Shown here in pieces: positions 12,388 to 31,077 of a stretch of DNA of 32,000 nt; position 1 is the first letter of the stretch; every line of letters begins with the position of its first letter. Under the pieces are notes generated by a model. The model saw only the letters and a list, made by a program, of their open reading frames with translations, made no database searches and had not been told where the DNA came from. This DNA comes from Candidatus Methylomirabilis limnetica (lineage in GTDB: Bacteria > Methylomirabilota > Methylomirabilia > Methylomirabilales > Methylomirabilaceae): the NCBI RefSeq assembly GCF_003044035.1, contig NZ_NVQC01000017.1, forward strand, positions 60,001 to 92,000. Direction: 5' to 3'. Position numbers and translations under genes: made by a program.

Positions 12388-12801
12388 ATGGCGGAAGCGA
12401 TCCAATCCCTTGTCGCTTGCGTTTCTGGCATGCTATCTGACAGCAGCATCCATGGAAAGATCTACGAATATTCGGAATCCGGGCTCTACTTTGGCGTGCC
12501 GCTTATCAACCTCTTTGGGTGGGCAGTTGTGGGATTTGTGACAATCGCCCTCTTTCAACAGATCGATTCTACGCTGGCGGCAGAGCCGACCTTAGACCGA
12601 GGGGTGAAACTGATCGAGTGTGGCGTCATACTCTACTATCTGATTCTAGTCTTTAGCCGCTCGATGACCTTTGCCGTTGGCGAGTTGCTGTCTGGAATAA
12701 CCGGAGCCTTACTGTACATCCCAATCACTTGGATGGTCTTCATACGCTACTGGCAGTGGTCGGCAGCCCACAGGCGTGTCAGTCGTGGAGCGCTATTATG
12801 A
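12388..12801 (+). CDS. Small integral membrane protein; tentatively resembles the C-terminal half of the carotenoid-biosynthesis / CruF-like family (PF04240)
   Basis: Shine-Dalgarno GAGGGAG lies 4 nt upstream. The protein has 3-4 hydrophobic segments, and YFGVPLINLFGW matches the G-x-P-x-x-N-x-x-GW motif as I recall it for that family. Its stop overlaps the hpnH start (ATGA at 12798..12801). The functional call is weak. Confidence 0.55.
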   Translation: MAEAIQSLVACVSGMLSDSSIHGKIYEYSESGLYFGVPLINLFGWAVVGFVTIALFQQIDSTLAAEPTLDRGVKLIECGVILYYLILVFSRSMTFAVGELLSGITGALLYIPITWMVFIRYWQWSAAHRRVSRGALL

Positions 12802-13799
12802 GATTTCCGTTGCACATCACGACGGATATGCTCAAACACCAGATTCGCCACGGGCTCAAAGGGAACACTCGATATCCGTTCGTCCTCATGCTCGAACCGC
12901 TGTACACTTGCAACCTGGCCTGTCTAGGCTGCGCCGTTGAGCGGCACACCGGGAAAATCGAGGATCGGTTGACGCTTCAGGAGTGCCTGAAGGCGGCGGA
13001 TGACTCTGGCGCTCCGGTCGTTTCGATCTGCGGCGGGGAGCCCACCATCTACCCTGAACTGAAAGGGTTGGTGGAGGGGATGATTGCCCGCAAGCGACAC
13101 GTTTACCTGTGTACCAACGGGTTGATGCTTGATCGAACCGTCTACGGCCTGATCGCACCGCACAATCGGCTCACTATCAACATCCATCTGGATGGACTTA
13201 GGCGAACCCACGACCAGGTCTGCGATAGGGAAGGTGTCTTCGATAAGGCGCTCGACATGATCAAGGAAGGCAAGCGGCTCGGCTACCGGGTGACGACAAA
13301 TACGACGGTCTTCAAGGAGACCGATCTTGACGAGATCGAGGCGCTGTGCCGCCTGCTGCGAGAGCACCAGGTAGATGGGATGCTCCTCTCGCCTGGGTAT
13401 AGCTATGCCTCAGCCGAGTCTGATTTCTTCCTGGCTCGCGAGGAGATCCACCAAAAGTTCCAAAAGGTTCTCGAACTGTCGAAACAGTATCGACTTATCT
13501 CCACCCCGATGTTCCTCGAATTTGCGGCCGGCCTGCGCGAGTACCCTTGCTCCCCGTGGAGTACTGTCACCTTTACCCCCGAAGGTTGGAGGGGGCCCTG
13601 CTATCTCATCGGGGAGAAATACTTCCGGACGTTTGAGGAGTTCTGGCAAGGCATGGATTGGGACTACTGGGAGTCCCGCCAGGACCGGCGCTGTTACAAC
13701 TGCAAGATGCACTCCGGCTTCGAGGCTTCTGTCGTCCGCGGGCTCCGAAACAGCCCGAAAGACATGCTCAGGATGGCCATCTGGAACTTTTTGGAGTAA
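12798..13799 (+). CDS. hpnH: Radical SAM adenosyl-hopene transferase
   Basis: RYPFVLMLEPLYTCNLACLGC (CxxxCxxC) plus a length and C-terminus typical of HpnH, directly upstream of shc. The ATG 12798 start has GGAG 7 nt upstream; the track ORF begins earlier, at 12729. Confidence 0.88.
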   Translation: MRFPLHITTDMLKHQIRHGLKGNTRYPFVLMLEPLYTCNLACLGCAVERHTGKIEDRLTLQECLKAADDSGAPVVSICGGEPTIYPELKGLVEGMIARKRHVYLCTNGLMLDRTVYGLIAPHNRLTINIHLDGLRRTHDQVCDREGVFDKALDMIKEGKRLGYRVTTNTTVFKETDLDEIEALCRLLREHQVDGMLLSPGYSYASAESDFFLAREEIHQKFQKVLELSKQYRLISTPMFLEFAAGLREYPCSPWSTVTFTPEGWRGPCYLIGEKYFRTFEEFWQGMDWDYWESRQDRRCYNCKMHSGFEASVVRGLRNSPKDMLRMAIWNFLE

Positions 13800-13804
13800 G
13801 CGCT

Positions 13805-15793
13805 ATGCCGGTGCCATCTGAAAGAGATTGGCAAATTGAGATGATGAGGACCGACCCTCGGGCCGACAGGGGCCCGCTTGACGAGGCGATCGAACAGGCC
13901 CGGTCTCGGCTCCTGGCCATGCAAGATCCTGCAGGCTTCTGGGTGGCGGAGTTGGAGGCCGACTCCACACTCACCTCCGAGTACATCATGCTCCGCTACC
14001 TGCTCGGCAAGGTGGACAAGACCAAGCAGCGTAAGGCCGCAGCCTACCTACTCGACACGCAACTGCCCGATGGCGGCTGGAACCTCTATCATGGCGGGTC
14101 AAGCCACCTGAGCACCACGGTCAAGGCCTATTTTGCGCTCAAGCTCTGCGGCCACTCCAGTGAGGAGCCGTTCATGCGACGAGCCCGAGAGGTGATTCTT
14201 GAGCAGGGCGGCCTCACGCAGGCCAACGTCTTCACCAGGTTTGCTCTCGCCCTCTTTGGCCAGTTTGATTGGCACGACGTCCCGGCCATGCCCATCGAAC
14301 TGTTCCTCCTGCCCAAGCATTCGTTTTTCAATATGCATGAGATCTCCTACTGGTCCAGGACCGTGCTCACCCCTTTGATGATTATCTTTGCCCATAAGCC
14401 GGTGACACCGGTCCCGGCCGGGGCTGATCTCATGGAGCTTCGTGTGGAGCCCAGGCCGAAGCATGCCGACTGGTTTCCTGGAGATTCAAGGCTGTTTTCG
14501 AAGCGAAACCTTTTCCTGGCCGCCGACCGGCTGCTCCACTGGTATGAGTGGCGTCCAATCTCATTCCTCCGCCAGGCGGCAATGGAGCGGGCCACGGCTT
14601 GGATGCTTAGACGAATGGGGGAAGGCGGCCTTGGCGGGATCTATCCGGCAATGGCGAACTCGATCATCGCGCTTCGCTGTCTGGGCTATGAGGTCGAGCA
14701 CTCTTTGGTGGCCAGTGCCTTCAAGCAGATCGAAGCGCTTGAAGTAGAAGACGATCGTACCCTTCACGTGCAGCCATGTCTCTCCCCTATCTGGGATACC
14801 TGCCTGGCGGTGAATGCACTTGCCGCATCGGGACTCCCCGCCGACCACTCCACCCTGGTCAGCGCATGCGAATGGCTCCTCTCGAAACAGACCCGAAGCG
14901 TAGGGGATTGGAAGGTAAAGGCTCCGGACGCCGAGCCAGGCGGCTGGTACTTTCAGTTCGAAAACGAGTTTTACCCGGATGTCGACGACAGTGCGGTAGT
15001 GATGACCGCCCTGATTAAGACCATTCTCCCCAATCAGGCGGCGAAAGGTGCAGCGCTCGATCAGGCCCTCAGGTGGGTCCTCCCGATGCAGTCAAGTGAT
15101 GGAGGCTGGGCAGCATACGACAAAGATAACAACAAGCTGTTCCTGAACGAGCTCCTCGTCGCCGACCACAAGGCACTGCTCGATCCGTCCACGGCGGATC
15201 TGACCGGACGGATGATCGAGATGCTTGGCCACCTGGGTTGGACCCGCACAACCCCCGCGGCTCAGCGCGCTATCGCATTCCTCAAACGGGAGCAGGAGCC
15301 TGAAGGGTGCTGGTTTGGTCGATGGGGAGTCAATTACATCTACGGGACCTGGGCGGTTCTGGCGGGCCTTCAAGCCATCGGAGAGCCGATGGACCAGCCG
15401 TACATCCGGCGAGCCGTTGACTGGCTCGTCGACCACCAGAACCCCGACGGTGGATGGGGCGAATCGTGCCATTCTTACGAGGATCCACAAACAGCCGGCC
15501 AGGGCCCAAGTACCCCTTCGCAAACCGCCTGGGCGCTCTTGGGGCTCTTACACGCGGGCTGCGTACAGCATTCCGCGGTGAGAAACGGCATCGACTATCT
15601 CCTCCGGACCCAGTGCGCGGATGGCGGATGGGAGGAACAAGAATTCACCGGAACGGGATTCCCCCGCGTCTTTTATCTTCGGTATCATCTCTACCGTCTC
15701 TACTTTCCGCTCTGGGCCCTTTCCATGTATCGCACCCTTCTCCAGAAGGCCGCCTCCGGCCACAATGAAGACGGCGCGACCCTCTCGGGCTAG
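13805..15793 (+). CDS. shc: Squalene-hopene cyclase
   Basis: The catalytic DxDD motif is present (YPDVDDSAVV), with repeated QW motifs (DGGWG..., QxxDGGW) and LQDPAGFWVAELEADSTLTSEYI at the N-terminus. ATG 13805 has GGAG 8 nt upstream. Confidence 0.95.
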   Translation: MPVPSERDWQIEMMRTDPRADRGPLDEAIEQARSRLLAMQDPAGFWVAELEADSTLTSEYIMLRYLLGKVDKTKQRKAAAYLLDTQLPDGGWNLYHGGSSHLSTTVKAYFALKLCGHSSEEPFMRRAREVILEQGGLTQANVFTRFALALFGQFDWHDVPAMPIELFLLPKHSFFNMHEISYWSRTVLTPLMIIFAHKPVTPVPAGADLMELRVEPRPKHADWFPGDSRLFSKRNLFLAADRLLHWYEWRPISFLRQAAMERATAWMLRRMGEGGLGGIYPAMANSIIALRCLGYEVEHSLVASAFKQIEALEVEDDRTLHVQPCLSPIWDTCLAVNALAASGLPADHSTLVSACEWLLSKQTRSVGDWKVKAPDAEPGGWYFQFENEFYPDVDDSAVVMTALIKTILPNQAAKGAALDQALRWVLPMQSSDGGWAAYDKDNNKLFLNELLVADHKALLDPSTADLTGRMIEMLGHLGWTRTTPAAQRAIAFLKREQEPEGCWFGRWGVNYIYGTWAVLAGLQAIGEPMDQPYIRRAVDWLVDHQNPDGGWGESCHSYEDPQTAGQGPSTPSQTAWALLGLLHAGCVQHSAVRNGIDYLLRTQCADGGWEEQEFTGTGFPRVFYLRYHLYRLYFPLWALSMYRTLLQKAASGHNEDGATLSG

Positions 15794-16583
15794 CCGGGTC
15801 CGCGGCGCGCCACTCGCCATCTTCGTGGCGACTCAGGCAGAGTTGAGGCCCATCGCCACGGCCTTGCAGCCGCCTAGCCGATCAATATATCGATCGAACT
15901 CGATGATCCGGGTTGGGATAGAGGGCCGCGATCTCCTGCTGGCCAATACCGGAGTGGGACCGGACAACGCCGAAGCCGCTGCCCGCCACCTCTTTGAAGA
16001 GATGCCTGTCACCGCCGCCTTGTCGCTCGGAGTCGCAGGCGGACTGAGCCCTCAGTTACAGACAGGGGATCTGATTGTGGGAGACCGGGCGATCCTTCGC
16101 CGCGGCTCAGGACAGGTCTTGCACGGGGAGAAGGGATCGGGATCGCAGAGCTTCCCGTGCGATTCCGGCTTGCAGGAGGCGGCCATAACCGTTATCCGCC
16201 GATCGGGTAGTCGGTACTATCTCGGCCCAATCCTTACCGTCGATAGGATTGTTCGGACGGCAGAGGAGAAGTGCCTACTGGCGGCGGAGTCAGGTGCCGT
16301 GGCCCTGGATATGGAGAGCGCAGCCATCGCGTCTGCGGCCTTGGCGTATTCTGTCCCCTTCCTGGCTATTCGTGGCGTCCTCGATCCGGTCCATGAAGAT
16401 CTCGCGATCGACTTCGATCAGTTTCTCGGCATAGAGGGGGAACCAAATCTACCCCGATTGATGCGATATCTGATCGCACATCCGTTTACCCTTCCTCGCC
16501 TGATCGGACTGGGTATTCGGACCAAGGCGGTCTGCGCTCGTCTCGGTCGACTGCTGCATGAGCTCTCAACCACCCTCAGCTGA
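15765..16583 (+). CDS. hpnG: Hopanoid-associated nucleosidase/phosphorylase (PNP_UDP_1 family)
   Basis: LSLGVAGGL, ALDMESAAIA and FLAIRGVLD are MTA/SAH-nucleosidase-like motifs, and the gene sits immediately after shc. The start is uncertain; ATG 15765 overlaps the shc end by 29 nt. Confidence 0.8.
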   Translation: MKTARPSRASRVRGAPLAIFVATQAELRPIATALQPPSRSIYRSNSMIRVGIEGRDLLLANTGVGPDNAEAAARHLFEEMPVTAALSLGVAGGLSPQLQTGDLIVGDRAILRRGSGQVLHGEKGSGSQSFPCDSGLQEAAITVIRRSGSRYYLGPILTVDRIVRTAEEKCLLAAESGAVALDMESAAIASAALAYSVPFLAIRGVLDPVHEDLAIDFDQFLGIEGEPNLPRLMRYLIAHPFTLPRLIGLGIRTKAVCARLGRLLHELSTTLS

Positions 16584-26200: not shown

Positions 26201-26953
26201 CTAAATATTTGGTGCTCCGGCACCTCGATCTGACGATCCCCTTCTCGGGGAAGGTGGCGGCATAACCGATCCACCAGGCACCCGTCGAGGCTGTAGCCTC
26301 GCGACGGTCTTCTGCATCGTCTCCAGCCAACAACAGGCAAAGTGGACATTCCTCAAACGCTCGGCTTCCTCAGGCACCCAACTTATAATGACCTCATCTT
26401 CAATTAGCCTCGTGCAGATTACGGGGGTGTCATCTCCGTTCACGGAGATGACGACGGTGCGCGTGGCCTGCGACAAGCGGAGCAGCTCGAGCGCCGACTC
26501 CGGAACGACGAGGCAAAGCGACACGCCCGCTGCGTGGCAACCTAGCATGAATCCGTGCGCGGGGTTGCCGGCGGAACAGACCAGCAACGGCGCGCGATCG
26601 TTCGCCGGTAGCGACAGATACCGGGCCAGCGTGACTTGTGCCTCGAACTCCTTGAAGGAACGCGACGTGCGCCGCCATAATCCAAGCCGCGCCGCCTATC
26701 CGACGCTGCGATAGCAACAGGACCGTCCCAATTCACCTTCGAGCAGGACAGAGTCGATCGGCAGTCAGTCGCGGTACGGAAAGATTCTCGACAGCGAAGT
26801 CTCGATGGAGAGCTTCGTGGACGAGTAAAACGCCTCCAATAAAGCGGGGCCGTGTTCGCGTTCGCAGCACAGTTGGAAGCCAGCGTCTGCAAACTCAGCG
26901 TCACACTCTGGATGCAGACATTTAAGACGATACGCCGCCACGCTACGGAGCAC
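26201..26953 (-). pseudogene. Threonine-synthase-like PLP (PALP fold) gene, decayed: in-frame TGA (26765..26767) and TAG (26696..26698), 3' end truncated at the att-like repeat
   Basis: A single minus-strand frame reads VLRSVAAYRLKCLHPECDAEF...QLCCEREHGPALLEAFY (ThrC-type zinc-ribbon N-terminus) ...PYRD*LPIDSVLLEGELGRSCCYRSVG*AARLG...LLVCSAGNPAHGFMLGCHAAGVSLCLVVPES...WLETMQKTVA. Compare the ThrC motifs SAGN and (E)GQKT. The position where the S-F-K-D-R PLP lysine is expected reads S-C-C-Y-R. Confidence 0.6.
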
Positions 26954-28253
26954 CTTCCAGTGCCGCCGTAGGAACCGGCACCACTTCGGCTTCGAGCAGG
27001 AATTCATTCAGTTTCAACAACGGGTCGTATGACGCTACGAAATACGCCAGCAGAAACGACTCGCCGAACCGTTGCTTCGTCCGCTCGATCGTCTCCACCA
27101 TCGTGAGCGATTCGACACTGAGAAGTTGTCCCGGCTTCAACCCCGACGAAAGGCGCCGCATCATTTCCTCCGGTGCCATCCCGCGAAGATATTTCGCAAC
27201 CGGCGGCCGAAGGAACACGCCGTCGCTCAATCCGGCAATTTCTTCGGACACCGAGCGATGATAGTCCTCCTCACGGTTGCCAACAGAACTGGCCACCCCC
27301 ACGAGATACCGGCACCCGAGCGCCTCTTGAACCCGACGGATCATCGGCGCTTCGAGCCGGTAGGCGTCGGGGTTCTTGCAGTGCAACAGCAACACGTAAT
27401 GACCTCGGAACCGGGCCAGGATGAAGCGACCGACAGGATAATCCCGATAGTCGCGTTCGTACTCGCGCAACACAGTGAGTTGCGCTTGGCGCGGCACTGG
27501 AAACGTGTCGCTGATTCCCTCAATGGCCGCAAGCGCCGCGAGGGCGTTGGCGATGTTGTAGCGTTGGTGTCCGCCGAACGTCATCGGCATTTCCGTTGCT
27601 GGCAGCAGGCGCCCCTCCCTCGCGTCATCTTTGCGCCACAACCAGCCGTCGCGCAGAAACCAGCCCCGGTCGAACTCATTCTCGCGTCCCGCGACGGTAA
27701 AGAAGATGGGACTGGCGCGACTCACCATCGTCATCGCCGCGACGCGCGGATCGTCCGCATTCAACACCACTGCGCCTGACGGATGGGTGCGACGGGCAAT
27801 CTCAGACTTGGCCTCCGCCATCTGGTCGAGCGTCCACACTCCTTCCAAGCCGAGATGATCCGCCAACACATTGGTCACAACTCCGACCCGGCACGTTGAG
27901 AAGCCAGGCCCGTAACAAAGCATCCCGCCGCGCCCCACTTCGGCGACAACCACTTGCAACCCCGGACAGTGCAGCGCCCGCCAAATTCCACGGTGACCGG
28001 CACGATCACCAACAGCAACGCGAACGCCGTTTTGGTACACGCCGTAGGTGGTGCACGTTCCAACCTTGTAGCCAGCGGCACGCAGCATCCGGTCAATGAG
28101 GTGAACCGTCGTGGTTTTCCCATTGGTACCGGTAACCGCGATGACGGGCGCGCGTCGCACCCATACACCCGTCCGCACAACATACCGGGCTTCGAATCGC
28201 AGCTTCCAGTGATGCAACCGGGCGCGCACTTGATGGAGAATGTTCCTATCCAT
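26943..28253 (-). CDS. Standalone Mur-ligase-family protein resembling the C-terminal (Mur-ligase) half of cyanophycin synthetase
   Basis: VIAVTGTNGKTTTVHLIDRMLRAAGYKVG (P-loop), VVAEVGRGGML, VVTNVLADHLG and VLNADDPRVAAM are present. ATG 28253 (MDRNILHQ...) is the first Met ahead of the ligase core, but the open frame continues upstream to 28499. Confidence 0.75.
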   Translation of the reverse strand: MDRNILHQVRARLHHWKLRFEARYVVRTGVWVRRAPVIAVTGTNGKTTTVHLIDRMLRAAGYKVGTCTTYGVYQNGVRVAVGDRAGHRGIWRALHCPGLQVVVAEVGRGGMLCYGPGFSTCRVGVVTNVLADHLGLEGVWTLDQMAEAKSEIARRTHPSGAVVLNADDPRVAAMTMVSRASPIFFTVAGRENEFDRGWFLRDGWLWRKDDAREGRLLPATEMPMTFGGHQRYNIANALAALAAIEGISDTFPVPRQAQLTVLREYERDYRDYPVGRFILARFRGHYVLLLHCKNPDAYRLEAPMIRRVQEALGCRYLVGVASSVGNREEDYHRSVSEEIAGLSDGVFLRPPVAKYLRGMAPEEMMRRLSSGLKPGQLLSVESLTMVETIERTKQRFGESFLLAYFVASYDPLLKLNEFLLEAEVVPVPTAALEGAP

Positions 28254-28442
28254 GCTCAGGGTTTTATGTAATGGGCCAAGACGGCGGAGTTGTGTCCACG
28301 CGACCGCGGCTAGCGCAACGACAATGAGCGTGCCGACGCCACCCACCACGACCGAGAACATTGCGCCGCCCCACACCACCACGATGCCGGACTCGAACGC
28401 ACCGAGTTTGTTGGAGGTCGTGATGAAGACACTGTTGACGGC
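28254..28442 (-). pseudogene. Remnant of the last TM helix / C-terminus of an MFS transporter, fused in frame to the Mur-ligase ORF
   Basis: AVNSVFITTSNKLGAFESGIVVVWGGAMFSVVVGGVGTLIVVALAAVAWTQLRRL matches the characteristic C-terminal (SN-x-LG-x-FESG ... GG-x-GT ... LRR) end of one MFS subfamily, as I recall it. There is no upstream MFS body; the frame is cut at ~28500. Confidence 0.5.
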
Positions 28443-28513
28443 GGACGCGTCCACGCATCGCGTCGGGCGGGAGCGCTTGCACGAGCGTGTGACGGACAAC
28501 GACGCTGCTCTAA

Positions 28514-28915
28514 CGGGTTTACGCGATAACCAGTTCTGGCGGGAGGCGGGTCTGGGCCGGCTATGGGGCCGTCTCGGCGGCCAAGGCAGCTCTGGAGTCG
28601 CATATCCGGCAGCTCGCGATGGAGCTGGCCCCCATAGGGATTACGGCGAACGCTATCCGCGCAGGGGTCACCGATACTCCAGCGCTCCGGAAGATCCCAG
28701 GAAGCCAGGGGATCGTAGAAACTGCGATGCGGCTCAATCCCTCCGGCCGCCTCACCACGCCCGAAGACATTGCCGAAATCCTCGTCACCTTGAGCCGCCC
28801 CGAGACCTACTGGATGACAGGTAACGTGATCGGGGTGGATGGGGGCGAGGATGTCGTAGCGTTCTTTATCTCCCCTGCAACGGCGGCAGGCACGGAAAGG
28901 CCGACGCCCGCTTGA
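28514..28915 (+). pseudogene. 5'-truncated enoyl-[ACP] reductase (FabL/FabI-like SDR), C-terminal ~133 aa only
   Basis: My translation from just after TAA 28511 reads RVYAITSSGGRRVWAGYGAVSAAKAALESHIRQLAMELAPIGITANAIRAGVTDTPALRKIPG...MTGNVIGVDGG. It has the Y-x6-K catalytic pair, but the whole Rossmann N-terminus (GxxxGxG) is absent. Confidence 0.65.
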
Positions 28916-29066
28916 TGAGGGATGCATGGGCCTCGTTGTGGGTAAAAGAGGATGTCAACCACGGGACTCGGCAGGTCAGGTACTGCGAGAGAGGCTCACG
29001 CATGAGGTTAACTGCAAAAAGTCGGGTTAAACCTATGCGCCGGGTGCGCGGCACAGCTCCGTTTGA

Positions 29067-29216
29067 TCAGCCACGGCTTGCTTGCCCGCCACCAGCCTGG
29101 CGACGGAATCGCCCCAGAGATACCGGCTGCCCTGCCGTGATATCTCTCAGCGGCTTGTGCCTCGTCAGCATTGGTTTCGTGTACGGCTGCTTTGGAGCCA
29201 GCGTGAAATCCTTCGT
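29067..29216 (-). CDS. Small ORF A (49 codons), paralog of ORF B; its start position is ACG where ORF B has ATG, so it may be inactive
   Basis: My translation is (T/M)KDFTLAPKQPYTKPMLTRHKPLRDITAGQPVSLGRFRRQAGGGQASRG*. TAAGGAG lies 7 nt upstream of the ACG. It is below the size cutoff of the ORF track. Confidence 0.35.
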   Translation of the reverse strand, partial: TKDFTLAPKQPYTKPMLTRHKPLRDITAGQPVSLGRFRRQAGGGQASRG

Positions 29217-29275
29217 TGGCTCACTCCTTAGATTTTAAGTTTACGATAGCGAGGGCTATGCCGTCTCGGTAAGCA

Positions 29276-29404
29276 TCAGTCTACTGACGGAGATATCTGC
29301 TGAGCCGTGATGTCCCGTAGCGGCTTGTGCTTCGTGAGTGTTGGCTTCGTGTACGGCTGCTTCGAGTCGGTCTCACGGACGTTCTGTTCCTGGACTTCCT
29401 TCAT
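29276..29404 (-). CDS. Small ORF B (42 aa), RiPP-precursor-like peptide
   Basis: GAAGGAG lies 7 nt upstream of ATG 29404..29402. My translation is MKEVQEQNVRETDSKQPYTKPTLTKHKPLRDITAQQISPSVD*. It shares an 18/20-identical central block with ORF A, while both flanks differ. Confidence 0.5.
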   Translation of the reverse strand: MKEVQEQNVRETDSKQPYTKPTLTKHKPLRDITAQQISPSVD

Positions 29405-29650
29405 GATTTTTCTCCTTCGCAGAGTCGTTTGTTGCAGTGACGATCACCAATGCGCATTCCGAACTTCCCACCACCGCAGGCAGGGAGGTAGGGGCGGATG
29501 TAGCACTCCTCGGGCAGGATCGGCTCCCGATAGCACTAGAAGTTTAATAGAAAAATCAAAATACTATGGTTCACCATATCCTCTAAAATCGAAGGGGTCA
29601 AGGAAGTTTTTCAGGGTGTGTTGGTAGCAATGAAAGGCATTAGAATGAAG

Positions 29651-29726
29651 TGGTGACCCGTTCGGGACTCGAACCCGAGACTCCCTGCTTAAAAGGCAGG
29701 AGCTCTGCCAACTGAGCTAACGGGTC
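29651..29726 (-). tRNA. tRNA-Lys (anticodon UUU), 76 nt with encoded CCA
   Basis: The reverse complement is GACCCGTTAGCTCAGTTGGCAGAGCTCCTGCCTTTTAAGCAGGGAGTCTCGGGTTCGAGTCCCGAACGGGTCACCA. It folds by hand into a cloverleaf with a 7-bp acceptor stem, D arm, anticodon stem CCTGC/GCAGG with loop CTTTTAA, 5-nt variable loop and a T arm with GGTTCGAGTCC. Confidence 0.93.
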
Positions 29727-29766: not shown

Positions 29767-31077
29767 TTAGCGTGCCAGTCCCCACTGCCGCAAAGCCGGC
29801 GTCGAGCGAAGGATCGTCTGGTCCCGTCGGGGCCCTGTGGAGATGAGCCCTGCCTTGACCCCTGTCAGCCCCTCAATCCGCTCGATATAGGCCCGGCAGT
29901 GGGCCGGTAGACGCTTGTATGAGGTGATGCCGACAATGCTCTCGTTCCAGCCTGGCACCTCTTCATAGATCGGCTCACACGCCTTCAGGAGACCGGTCTC
30001 GTTCGGAAATTCTCGAAGGATCGCGCCGTTACATCGGTAGCTCGTGCAGATCCGGATCGAGTCACAGGCATCAAGGACATCTAGCTTCATGAGGGCGAGG
30101 GCCGATAGGCCGTTGATCCTGGCGCTGTACCTGACGGCAACGGCATCGAACCAGCCGCAGCGCCTCGGCCGCCCCGTTGTGGCCCCAAACTCCTGCCCAC
30201 GTGTCTGCAGCATCTGACCGATCGCATCCGTAAGCTCCGTCGGCATCGGACCCTCGCCGACGCGCGTCGTATAGGCCTTGGTTACGCCCAGGACGCCGTC
30301 GATCACTAACGGACTCACCCCGGTCCCGGTACAGGCGCCTCCGGCCGTGGCGCTCGATGAGGTGACGTAGGGGTAGGTCCCGAGATCGACGTCCAGGAGG
30401 GTCCCCTGCGCCCCCTCAAACAGGACGCTCTTCCCGGTTTTGATCAGATCGTAAATGATAAGGGAGCTGTCCACCACGAAGCCGCGAACGCGCTCGAACT
30501 GTTCAAGTTGCTCCGCCGCCATCTTTTCGCAATCCAGCTCCGCCAGCTCCTGATGCTGTGGGAACTGGGCGCGCTTCTCTTCAAGGTTACTGCGGAGGCG
30601 CTCCCTGAAGAGGTCGCGGTCGGTCAGATCGCCAACCCGGATCCCTGTCCTCGCCATCTTATCGATATAGGCTGGACCAATCCCGCGTCTAGTGGTCCCG
30701 ATCTGCCGACCCTCTCGGAGCCGTTCCAGCTCGGCGTCCAGGATCTTATGGTAGGGAAGCACCAGATGCGCGTTCTTACTGATAAAGAAGTTCTCCTCGA
30801 TCTTCACGTGCAGCTTTCTGAGCTGATCCATTTCCTGGATAAGGGCGGTCAGGTCAATCACCACGCCGTTCCCCAGGATGCAGACCTTCCCCTTCCTCAG
30901 TACGCCCGACGGGACCAGGTGCAGGACTATCTTCTCCTCCTCCACCACGACCGTATGGCCCGCGTTGGTCCCACCCTGGTACCGGGCCACCGCATCAAAA
31001 TACTCTGAGAGGAGATCAACAATCTTCCCCTTCCCTTCGTCGCCCCACTGCGTGCCGACAACAATTACATTGGCCAT
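29767..31077 (-). CDS. purA: Adenylosuccinate synthetase
   Basis: MANVIVVGTQWGDEGKGKIVDLL (P-loop), GGTNAGHTV, TTRRGIGPAY and GTTGRPRRCGWFD are PurA signatures. ATG 31077 is preferred over the track start at 31107. Confidence 0.95.
   Translation of the reverse strand: MANVIVVGTQWGDEGKGKIVDLLSEYFDAVARYQGGTNAGHTVVVEEEKIVLHLVPSGVLRKGKVCILGNGVVIDLTALIQEMDQLRKLHVKIEENFFISKNAHLVLPYHKILDAELERLREGRQIGTTRRGIGPAYIDKMARTGIRVGDLTDRDLFRERLRSNLEEKRAQFPQHQELAELDCEKMAAEQLEQFERVRGFVVDSSLIIYDLIKTGKSVLFEGAQGTLLDVDLGTYPYVTSSSATAGGACTGTGVSPLVIDGVLGVTKAYTTRVGEGPMPTELTDAIGQMLQTRGQEFGATTGRPRRCGWFDAVAVRYSARINGLSALALMKLDVLDACDSIRICTSYRCNGAILREFPNETGLLKACEPIYEEVPGWNESIVGITSYKRLPAHCRAYIERIEGLTGVKAGLISTGPRRDQTILRSTPALRQWGLAR

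Follow-up and report, generated by a model that had tools for sequence, protein, structure and literature searches.

The leader motif bound by lasso B1 proteins consists of Tyr-17, Pro-14, Leu-12 and, in addition, the penultimate Thr-2, and in the Bsf system the kinase BsfK phosphorylates Ser3 of the core peptide in a B1-dependent manner (PMC10368454). The kinases PadeK, ThcoK and PsmK phosphorylate or polyphosphorylate a Ser residue, and PsmN adds a hexose to phosphoserine (PMC9266682). A cyclase-less family, the LPPs, has been described from Bacillota, in which LppK polyphosphorylates Ser3 (Popov et al., Nat Commun 2026, PMC13381572); the LPP leader peptidase is the SipW-like LppS, which was used to define the family, and the leader consensus is YxxPxVLxHQxIxFETxxS (PMC13381572). 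RRE-Finder has in addition revealed thousands of uncharacterised lasso-like recognition elements (RREs) of ribosomally synthesised, post-translationally modified peptides (RiPPs) that occur without the requisite leader peptidase and cyclase, about 300 of them beside radical SAM enzymes (PMC7470986). Here we describe two small open reading frames (ORFs), ORF B and ORF A, on the minus strand of a 32,000-nt stretch of Candidatus Methylomirabilis limnetica DNA (contig NZ_NVQC01000017.1), referred to as the window, with coordinates that are 1-based on its full length. With good confidence, we assign them to a RiPP family with an RRE-kinase-B2 pathway and no cyclase, and read the window locus as a mosaic containing an intact ORF B and a dead ORF A.

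An earlier note, made from the letters of the window, had reported the two mini-ORFs, a Shine-Dalgarno sequence GAAGGAG, a central block of 20 residues identical at 18 positions, and a 61-nt repeat at the DNA level. Reading of the window DNA and alignment of the two peptides reproduced the sequences, the ribosome-binding site and the 18/20 identity; a repeat search of the window recovered the direct repeat in the same register but with a length of 66 nt (two copies, 82% identity, spacing 170). The note had also advised a homolog search with the block, and our first protein search of public data returned 47 mini-proteins of 32–64 aa, all of which have the near-invariant block PYTKPTLTKHKPLRDITA and, after it, a short tail of unrelated sequence. 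Searches of the ORF A and ORF B peptides against Pfam and NCBIfam gave nothing above threshold, and a motif scan of the whole window showed no further precursors.

To assess the coding signal, the leader block was taken from the fetched loci in 18 different DNA sequences, which were compared pairwise. Third codon positions accounted for 1104 of 1349 differences (82%), and the codon differences comprised 1055 synonymous and 164 non-synonymous changes (6.4 to 1). The frame, start and ribosome-binding site were preserved in at least 60 homologs. RNA folding of the repeat on both strands was not significant relative to shuffled sequence (z −0.8 to +0.55), and Rfam contained no family for the repeat, its sole match being the neighbouring tRNA. 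The leader is under purifying selection, and the repeat is protein-coding. The earlier note had named conservation at the nucleotide level only, such as that of a repeat or structured RNA, as an outcome that would undo its proposal. Nothing but the existence of the repeat speaks for that explanation, in which the ORFs would be incidental; given the third-position and synonymous excess, the conserved frame, and the lack of a fold or an Rfam family, it is hardly credible.

The family set comprised 63 precursors (homologs from the first search and those of added loci) with 60 distinct cores, cleavage after Thr-Ala being assumed, and so agrees with the conserved leader and hypervariable core that the note had described. 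Counted back from the end of the block, the leader positions are Ala-1, Thr-2, Leu-12, Pro-14 and Tyr-17 in ORF A, ORF B and the 63 members. The spacing of Tyr-17, Pro-14, Leu-12 and Thr-2 is exactly that of lasso B1 recognition, so that direct counting upholds the lasso-type leader spacing noted previously. The cores are 4–13 aa long (median 7), ORF A with 21 aa being the sole exception. A Ser residue occupies core position 3–5 in 58 of the 60 distinct cores, and position 4 in 42, the position depending on the assumed Thr-Ala cleavage; none of the 60 contains Cys. The conserved core Ser is the obvious modification site.

A second precursor subfamily, with the leader AYERPILRRVGWLRDVTA, adjoins the main cluster described below (locus L004), where its cores are QASIDTIE and NGSTDT. 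A Nitrospira-type leader, SYVQPxLxKHELLRDITA with Ser3, is present in loci L023 (MKKESYVQPALAKHELLRDITA followed by KKSGYTGGG...) and L024 (MKAQQKESYVQPVLVKHELLRDITA followed by TRSGYGNGH...), the cores of which are longer than those of Methylomirabilis and lack any Asp or Glu. Judged by sequence, these genes are a predicted RiPP precursor family of Methylomirabilis (phylum NC10), Nitrospira and two metagenome contigs. A scan of a genome collection by precursor alignment, which followed the pattern TKHKPLRD only and is uninformative on distant relatives, yielded four loci, each of them either from Methylomirabilota or probably mis-binned.

In ORF B, leader codons 1–34 (29404–29303) are followed by the core QQISPSVD (29302–29279) and a stop codon (29278–29276). 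The peptide is identical to WP_275666218.1 of Ca. M. limnetica, currently annotated only as a hypothetical protein, and the window as a whole matches contigs of this organism at 99.9–100% identity. Its ATG overlaps the stop codon of a radical SAM stub (ATGA), the same overlap being present in the intact cluster, its residues from Tyr-17 to Ala-1 are the family consensus, and its core Ser is at the usual position 4. ORF B is an intact precursor gene that has kept its ribosome-binding site, spacing, ATG and leader.

ORF A instead has ACG (29216–29214) in the position of the start codon, and ends with TGA (29069–29067). Its frame is shut upstream by TAA (29237–29235), and its first Met is at 29171, with no earlier ATG, GTG or TTG. 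Its leader has Met in place of Thr-13 and Arg in place of Lys-10, two changes that are absent from the other precursors of the loci fetched. The counterpart of ORF A is precursor 2 of the main cluster, MKDVTPTPKQPYTKPTLTKHKPLRDITAANPSIT, which has ATG and the same ribosome-binding site, bearing out the suggestion of a dead copy. The ORF A core begins with GQPVSL, and one M. lanthanidiphila precursor ends similarly with GTPVSLK and a stop codon. The end of ORF A crosses a deletion junction, the last 9 codons and the stop codon coming from an NTP_transf_5 stub. The long tail is a deletion artefact, and the Gly at core position 1, previously taken as a lasso sign, is uninformative on that point. 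The ORF A sequence is the same in three independent assemblies and therefore reflects no sequencing error. With its ACG start, two leader substitutions and fused tail, ORF A is a pseudogene.

Within the same assembly, ERZ4201064, a homologous precursor (WP_275666205.1) sits on a different contig (coverage 400 versus 392). Inspection of neighbourhoods, also advised by the note, revealed PqqD-type RRE and radical SAM genes in the main cluster on the other contig. This cluster begins with two precursors of the second subfamily (46 and 44 aa), a cyanophycin-synthetase M-domain-like Mur ligase, a PqqD-type RRE, a lasso B2 and a radical SAM/SPASM gene, and ends with precursor 1, precursor 2, an HprK-like kinase (ScmC), NTP_transf_5, short-chain dehydrogenase/reductase (SDR) and SnoaL genes on the opposite strand, ABM, and two ABC exporters. 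The RRE protein matches PF05402 at 65.9 bits and ScmD weakly, and its best solved-structure match is the lasso protein TbiB1 (E 2e-7). The B2 protein (Transglut_core3) matches NF033537 at 56.3 bits, above the cutoff of 33; the kinase (Hpr_kinase_C/ScmC) contains the Walker motif GLSGSGKST and matches TIGR04352 with E 7e-22; the NTP_transf_5 protein matches PF14907 at 186.8 bits; and both exporters match MsbA-related models. The radical SAM/SPASM protein scores best on the mycofactocin maturase model, with 148.7 bits where the cutoff is 265. Precursor 2 has no NCBI accession in the collection searched. An apparent disruption of the B2 gene was rejected as a gene-calling artefact arising from a GTG start; the gene is intact, with DNA identical to that of loci L005 and L006.

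The same cluster is present in M. lanthanidiphila (L014), with five precursors and without the Mur ligase, and on a Joint Genome Institute (JGI) metagenome contig (L001), with three precursors. On contig DATMXF010000215.1 (L017), from a metagenome-assembled genome labelled Patescibacteria, there is no radical SAM gene and a GT2 glycosyltransferase replaces NTP_transf_5. PqqD, ScmC/HprK-like kinase and NTP_transf_5 genes occur in L022, L023 and L024 (Nitrospira), with precursors found in L023 and L024 only; L022 and L023 also contain B2 and an ABC protein, and the L024 contig ends at NTP_transf_5. Since the radical SAM gene is missing from L017 and L022–L024, and none was seen on the short contig L085, it is an accessory component. 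Its distant homologs (39–44% identity) lie in unrelated contexts, and the gene is therefore no tracer of the family beyond Methylomirabilis.

Several further features of these loci were recorded. L017 carries a Methylomirabilis-type cluster in a Patescibacteria bin, and a radical SAM protein that is 75% identical (P0071) is labelled Anaerolineales; both are probably mis-binned. A PAP2/vanadium-chloroperoxidase-like gene lies within the five-precursor array of M. lanthanidiphila (L014 11690–12913, minus strand). Type II secretion/pseudopilin genes adjoin the main clusters of two species (L004 1–5708, L014 1–8767) and the orphan locus of a third genome (L020 6267–8709). For LPP loci, co-location with capsule loci has been noted (PMC13381572).

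With respect to lasso membership, the leader contains the B1 motif, and RRE and B2 proteins are encoded with the precursors in the main cluster, not in the window. Precursors of a true lasso peptide, with a cyclase outside the window, would account for the exact motif spacing, for the B1 and B2 homologs, and for sub-threshold matches to leader models (NF033521, E 0.15; NF033528 in 26 of 54 members, best E 0.017). However, the curated lasso precursor models NF033521 and NF033528 were not reached (the best score was 12.2 bits, with the cutoff at 19; E 0.017–0.15), and no Asn-synthetase-like cyclase was found in the flanking sequence, available for up to 10 kb, of eight clusters, among them L001, L004, L014, L017 and L022–L024. 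The cores offer too few residues for a ring and tail, none of those of at least 13 aa has Asp or Glu at positions 7–9, and the L023 and L024 cores contain neither residue at all. The short cores lacking an Asp/Glu acceptor, together with the missing cyclase, indicate that the product is linear or cyclised by other chemistry and rule out the lasso fold, leaving a lasso precursor with a very small probability.

In the pathway that we propose instead, a discrete PqqD-type, lasso-B1-like protein would bind the leader (Tyr-17 xx Pro-14 x Leu-12 ... Thr-2 Ala-1) and present the peptide to the HprK-like kinase, which would phosphorylate the Ser at core position 3–5. NTP_transf_5, or the GT2 glycosyltransferase in one variant, would decorate the phosphoserine, the lasso-type B2 cysteine protease would cleave after Thr-Ala, and the MsbA-like ABC pumps would export a very short linear product of 4–13 residues. 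In Methylomirabilis, the radical SAM/SPASM enzyme may add one more modification. Radical SAM, Mur ligase and 2-oxoglutarate (2OG) oxygenase would be lineage-specific extras, and a macrolactam cyclase would take no part. ORF B probably still gives rise to a peptide, which the intact cluster elsewhere in the genome would process in trans.

The window contains no RRE, B2 peptidase or lasso cyclase, its sole Asn_synthase match being QueC, and the two peptides sit among gene fragments; the earlier description of orphans in a decayed stretch, with neither cyclase, leader peptidase nor RRE in the window, was thus accurate. The mosaic consists of a radical SAM 3' stub, ORF B, ORF A, an NTP_transf_5 stub and half of an SDR gene, and lies beside tRNA-Lys (Table 1). 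Its first paralogous segment contains the radical SAM 3' end, precursor 1, the spacer and the leader of precursor 2. Compared with the main cluster, the junction lacks the HprK-like kinase gene and the greater part of NTP_transf_5. The second segment, 92% identical over 612 columns with a 28-nt gap included, starts from the NTP_transf_5 3' stub and continues through the intergenic DNA into the SDR gene, of which it has the 3' half. The SDR fragment covers only positions 159–234 of the 236 of PF13561, and the full gene in L004 encodes 289 aa. One promoter-like site was found against 0.2 expected, a consensus match only and weak evidence.

Table 1. Positions of the precursor genes and of the features around them in the window
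Feature	Position	Strand	Remarks
Repeat copy 1	29127..29192		ORF A leader block
Repeat copy 2	29297..29362		ORF B leader block
ORF B, intact precursor gene	29276..29404	minus	42 aa, MKEVQEQNVRETDSKQPYTKPTLTKHKPLRDITAQQISPSVD
Shine-Dalgarno GAAGGAG of ORF B	29412..29418	minus	7 nt before ATG; main cluster arranged likewise
ORF A, decayed precursor gene	29067..29216	minus	reads TKDFTLAPKQPYTKPMLTRHKPLRDITAGQPVSLGRFRRQAGGGQASRG
Radical SAM/SPASM remnant	29401..29535	minus	last 44 codons, CYREPILPEECYIRPYLPACGGGKFGMRIGDRHCNKRLCEGEKS and stop
Paralogous segment 1	29132..29542	minus	L004 9860-10298, 79% identity (BLAST)
Junction, unique 35 nt	29097..29131	minus	encodes ORF A core GQPVSLGRFRRQ
Paralogous segment 2	28513..29096	minus	L004 12647-13257 (BLAST)
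Truncated SDR/enoyl-ACP-reductase-like gene, pseudogene fragment	28619..28915	plus	C-terminal 98 codons only
Promoter-like site TTGACC-17-TATGGT	29573..29601	minus	upstream of radical SAM stub and ORF B
tRNA-Lys(UUU)	29651..29726	minus	upstream neighbour of mosaic
Stand-alone Mur-ligase protein, cyanophycin-synthetase M-domain-like	26943..28499	minus	downstream of mosaic

At a second orphan locus (L020/L021), from a different Methylomirabilis genome, a decayed radical SAM 3' stub again lies just upstream of the precursor, which indicates that dispersal of a unit of radical SAM 3' end plus precursor recurs. Proteins of 225 aa and 440 aa with no Pfam match (L020 8774–9451 and 10201–11523) flank this orphan precursor.

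A number of points weigh against the reading of a cyclase-less pathway with a live ORF B. The HprK-like protein falls below the NCBIfam curated cutoff (77.9 bits versus 200 for TIGR04352). In LPPs and other characterised systems the modified residue is Ser3, whereas the Ser here is mostly at core position 4. A cyclase could be encoded elsewhere in the genome, beyond the inspected 10 kb per side of the main clusters, although this is unlikely. The homology, the gene contents of the clusters, the leader's purifying selection, the structure of the mosaic and ORF A's decay come directly from the analysis; each chemical step, the expression and the trans-processing are what we infer. Comparison of the window with L004 for the ratio of non-synonymous to synonymous substitution rates (dN/dS) gave values that rest on 5–13 substitutions each and are hence suggestive only: 0.13 for the ORF B leader (dS 0.49), 0.28 for the ORF A leader (dS 0.37), 0.41 for the radical SAM stub (dS 0.38) and 1.4 for the 98-codon SDR fragment (dS 0.013). 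Finally, the two paralogous segments are about 30-fold apart in dS (0.37–0.49 versus 0.013). One duplication and one deletion are for this reason insufficient as the full history, which calls for two events or for a gene conversion.

The dN/dS values suggest that ORF B is the most constrained piece of the mosaic. They bear on another explanation, in which no part of the mosaic is functional any longer and ORF B, a remnant like the rest, merely lacks a disabling mutation so far. The broken surroundings (radical SAM stub, ORF A, NTP_transf_5 stub and half SDR gene), the lack of a modifying enzyme in the window, and the origin of the ORF B core and stop codon by deletions running into main-cluster intergenic DNA are all consistent with such a remnant. 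Yet the 34-codon ORF B leader, at a dS of about 0.49, has accumulated only 5 non-synonymous changes, none of them between Tyr-17 and Ala-1, where the neighbouring ORF A has two; the ribosome-binding site, spacing and ATG are intact; and the new core retains Ser4, like 42 of the 60 family cores. A mere remnant is on balance unlikely, though it deserves serious consideration, and we favour a functional ORF B. The locus in the window is a real, partly decayed satellite of a RiPP system encoded elsewhere in the genome.

Two short repeats lie close to the mosaic. A 14-nt direct repeat, 86% identical, joins its inner edge (28505–28518) with the 5' part of tRNA-Lys (29712–29725); it might be the scar of an insertion, but coincidence is more likely. 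A 14-nt inverted repeat (29593–29606 and 29850–29863; 93% complementary) brackets tRNA-Lys, with one arm overlapping the promoter-like −35 element.

The Mur-ligase ORF downstream of the mosaic encodes 518 aa, of which the first 82 codons (28254–28499) are membrane-segment-like (…GIVVVWGGAMFSVVVGGVGTLIVVALAAVAW…) and absent from all aligned relatives. These codons are probably a fragment of another gene fused in frame, so that the true start of the ligase is likely the ATG at 28253. An 80-aa Cys-rich ORF with no Pfam match (26765–27007, minus strand; …YRLKCLHPECDAEFADAGFQLCCEREHGPALLEAFY…) overlaps the 3' end of the ligase gene, and could be a piece of a larger gene with an N-terminal zinc ribbon.

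The adjacency of this ligase raises the question of whether it forms a module with ORF B, adding an amino acid or amine to a core carboxylate, e.g. the C-terminal Asp of QQISPSVD. In L004, the two second-subfamily precursors lie directly upstream of a Mur ligase, and on L085, an unrelated metagenome contig, three such precursors surround a ligase ortholog that is 64% identical to that of L004, with genes for an HprK-like kinase and a 2OG-Fe(II) oxygenase also present. The window ligase, however, is just 30–32% identical to the L004 and L085 ligases; its nearest relatives (38–44%) are proteins of 570–590 aa with a cyanophycin-synthetase-like N domain and an M domain and no precursor nearby; pseudogene fragments separate it from ORF B; and the M. 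lanthanidiphila cluster has no Mur ligase. We consider the module improbable, and retain the reading in which ORF B depends on the intact cluster. A metagenome scan by Mur-ligase alignment returned generic cyanophycin-synthetase-like genes without precursors in 79 of 80 loci, only L085 being informative. On L085 (1–4472), the three precursors, of the Gly-8 type, lie with the kinase, oxygenase and ligase genes within 4.5 kb, and the contig ends limit the view of RRE and B2.

The rest of the window is mostly housekeeping, with dprA, a D-Ala-D-Ala carboxypeptidase gene, secDF, and polyamine and hopanoid genes, and also carries a MacAB-type pump, degP, queE, queC, purA and hisZ. The hopanoid set, on the plus strand, comprises an HpnH-like radical SAM gene with DUF3463 (12729–13799), a squalene-hopene cyclase gene (13658–15793) and an HpnG-like PNP_UDP_1 phosphorylase gene (15621–16583).

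If the proposed pathway is correct, linear analogues of phosphorylated lasso peptides would extend from Bacillota to Methylomirabilota and Nitrospirota, and the logic of recognition plus kinase would also operate with an ordinary lasso B2 protease. For evolution, the family would be a clear case of lasso machinery with the cyclase lost or never present. The cores rank among the shortest for any leader-dependent peptide, and there would be no obvious precedent for radical SAM action on cores that have 4–13 residues and no Cys. The hosts, nitrite-dependent methane oxidisers and Nitrospira-type bacteria, are hard to culture, and secreted peptide signals or antagonists are essentially unexplored in them. 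More tentatively, and with less than even confidence, we suggest that the family is an undescribed B2-dependent, cyclase-less branch making ultrashort (4–13 residue) phospho- or glyco-serine peptides, altered by radical SAM enzymes in NC10 and sometimes by a cyanophycin-synthetase-like ligase. Its precursors would spread by partial cluster duplication and be matured in trans, giving each strain a small, fast-changing repertoire, of which ORF B may be a live example.

A dispersed arrangement is known from the prochlorosins, in which the ProcA precursor genes are scattered and served by one ProcM. The window locus and L020/L021 resemble this system in having conserved-leader, hypervariable-core precursors far from a single enzyme set, but differ in their enzymology and in that the stray copies are scarred by partial cluster duplication. 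Relative to radical SAM/SPASM RiPPs, the maturase gene is not beside the precursor in all members here, and the cores show none of the signatures of that class (Cys, C-terminal Val-Tyr, Glu...Tyr pair). The HPr-rel-A/SynChlorMet cassettes (TIGR04352, TIGR04249, TIGR04248; PF27840 ScmC) give kinase and weak RRE matches, all below curated cutoffs; these are computational families, for which no published chemistry was found in the literature searched.

The closest published family is that of the LPPs, which likewise have no cyclase. Their discrete RRE, HprK-like kinase, NTP transferase and MsbA-like exporter are all encoded in the main cluster here, not in the window. When their leader consensus is aligned with YTKPTLTKHKPLRDITAxxxS, the Tyr, Pro, His and Thr residues coincide and Leu is shifted by one column; in both, a Ser comes soon after the cleavage site, which is here the assumed Thr-Ala site. 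In contrast to LPPs, no cluster here contains a SipW-like peptidase gene, and a lasso-type B2 transglutaminase-fold protease is encoded instead; radical SAM/SPASM, Mur-ligase and 2OG-oxygenase genes are extra. LPP precursors are 35–200 aa in all, whereas the Methylomirabilis cores are 4–13 aa, and LPPs are described as restricted to Bacillota, whereas the hosts here are Methylomirabilota and Nitrospirota. The phosphorylated lasso peptides (paeninodin, pseudomycoidin and the Bsf subfamily; PMC9266682, PMC10368454) share with this family the genes for B1, B2, kinase, N and D, and the leader motif Tyr-17, Pro-14, Leu-12 (and Thr-2), but differ in having a macrolactam cyclase, longer cores and an Asp/Glu acceptor. 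No paper on a B2-dependent, cyclase-less form or on these peptides was found in the open-access literature searched. The proposal of a different, undescribed class in the earlier note was right in separating the peptides from lasso peptides, by the missing cyclase and the short cores, and went too far in calling them wholly undescribed, as they are a variant of the cyclase-less, kinase-bearing LPP type (PMC13381572). As far as gene content and sequence can tell, the family is neither lasso, by its lack of a cyclase and by its cores, nor LPP in the strict sense, by its lack of a SipW-like peptidase; it appears to be LPP-like, and equally like a phosphorylated lasso pathway minus the cyclase.

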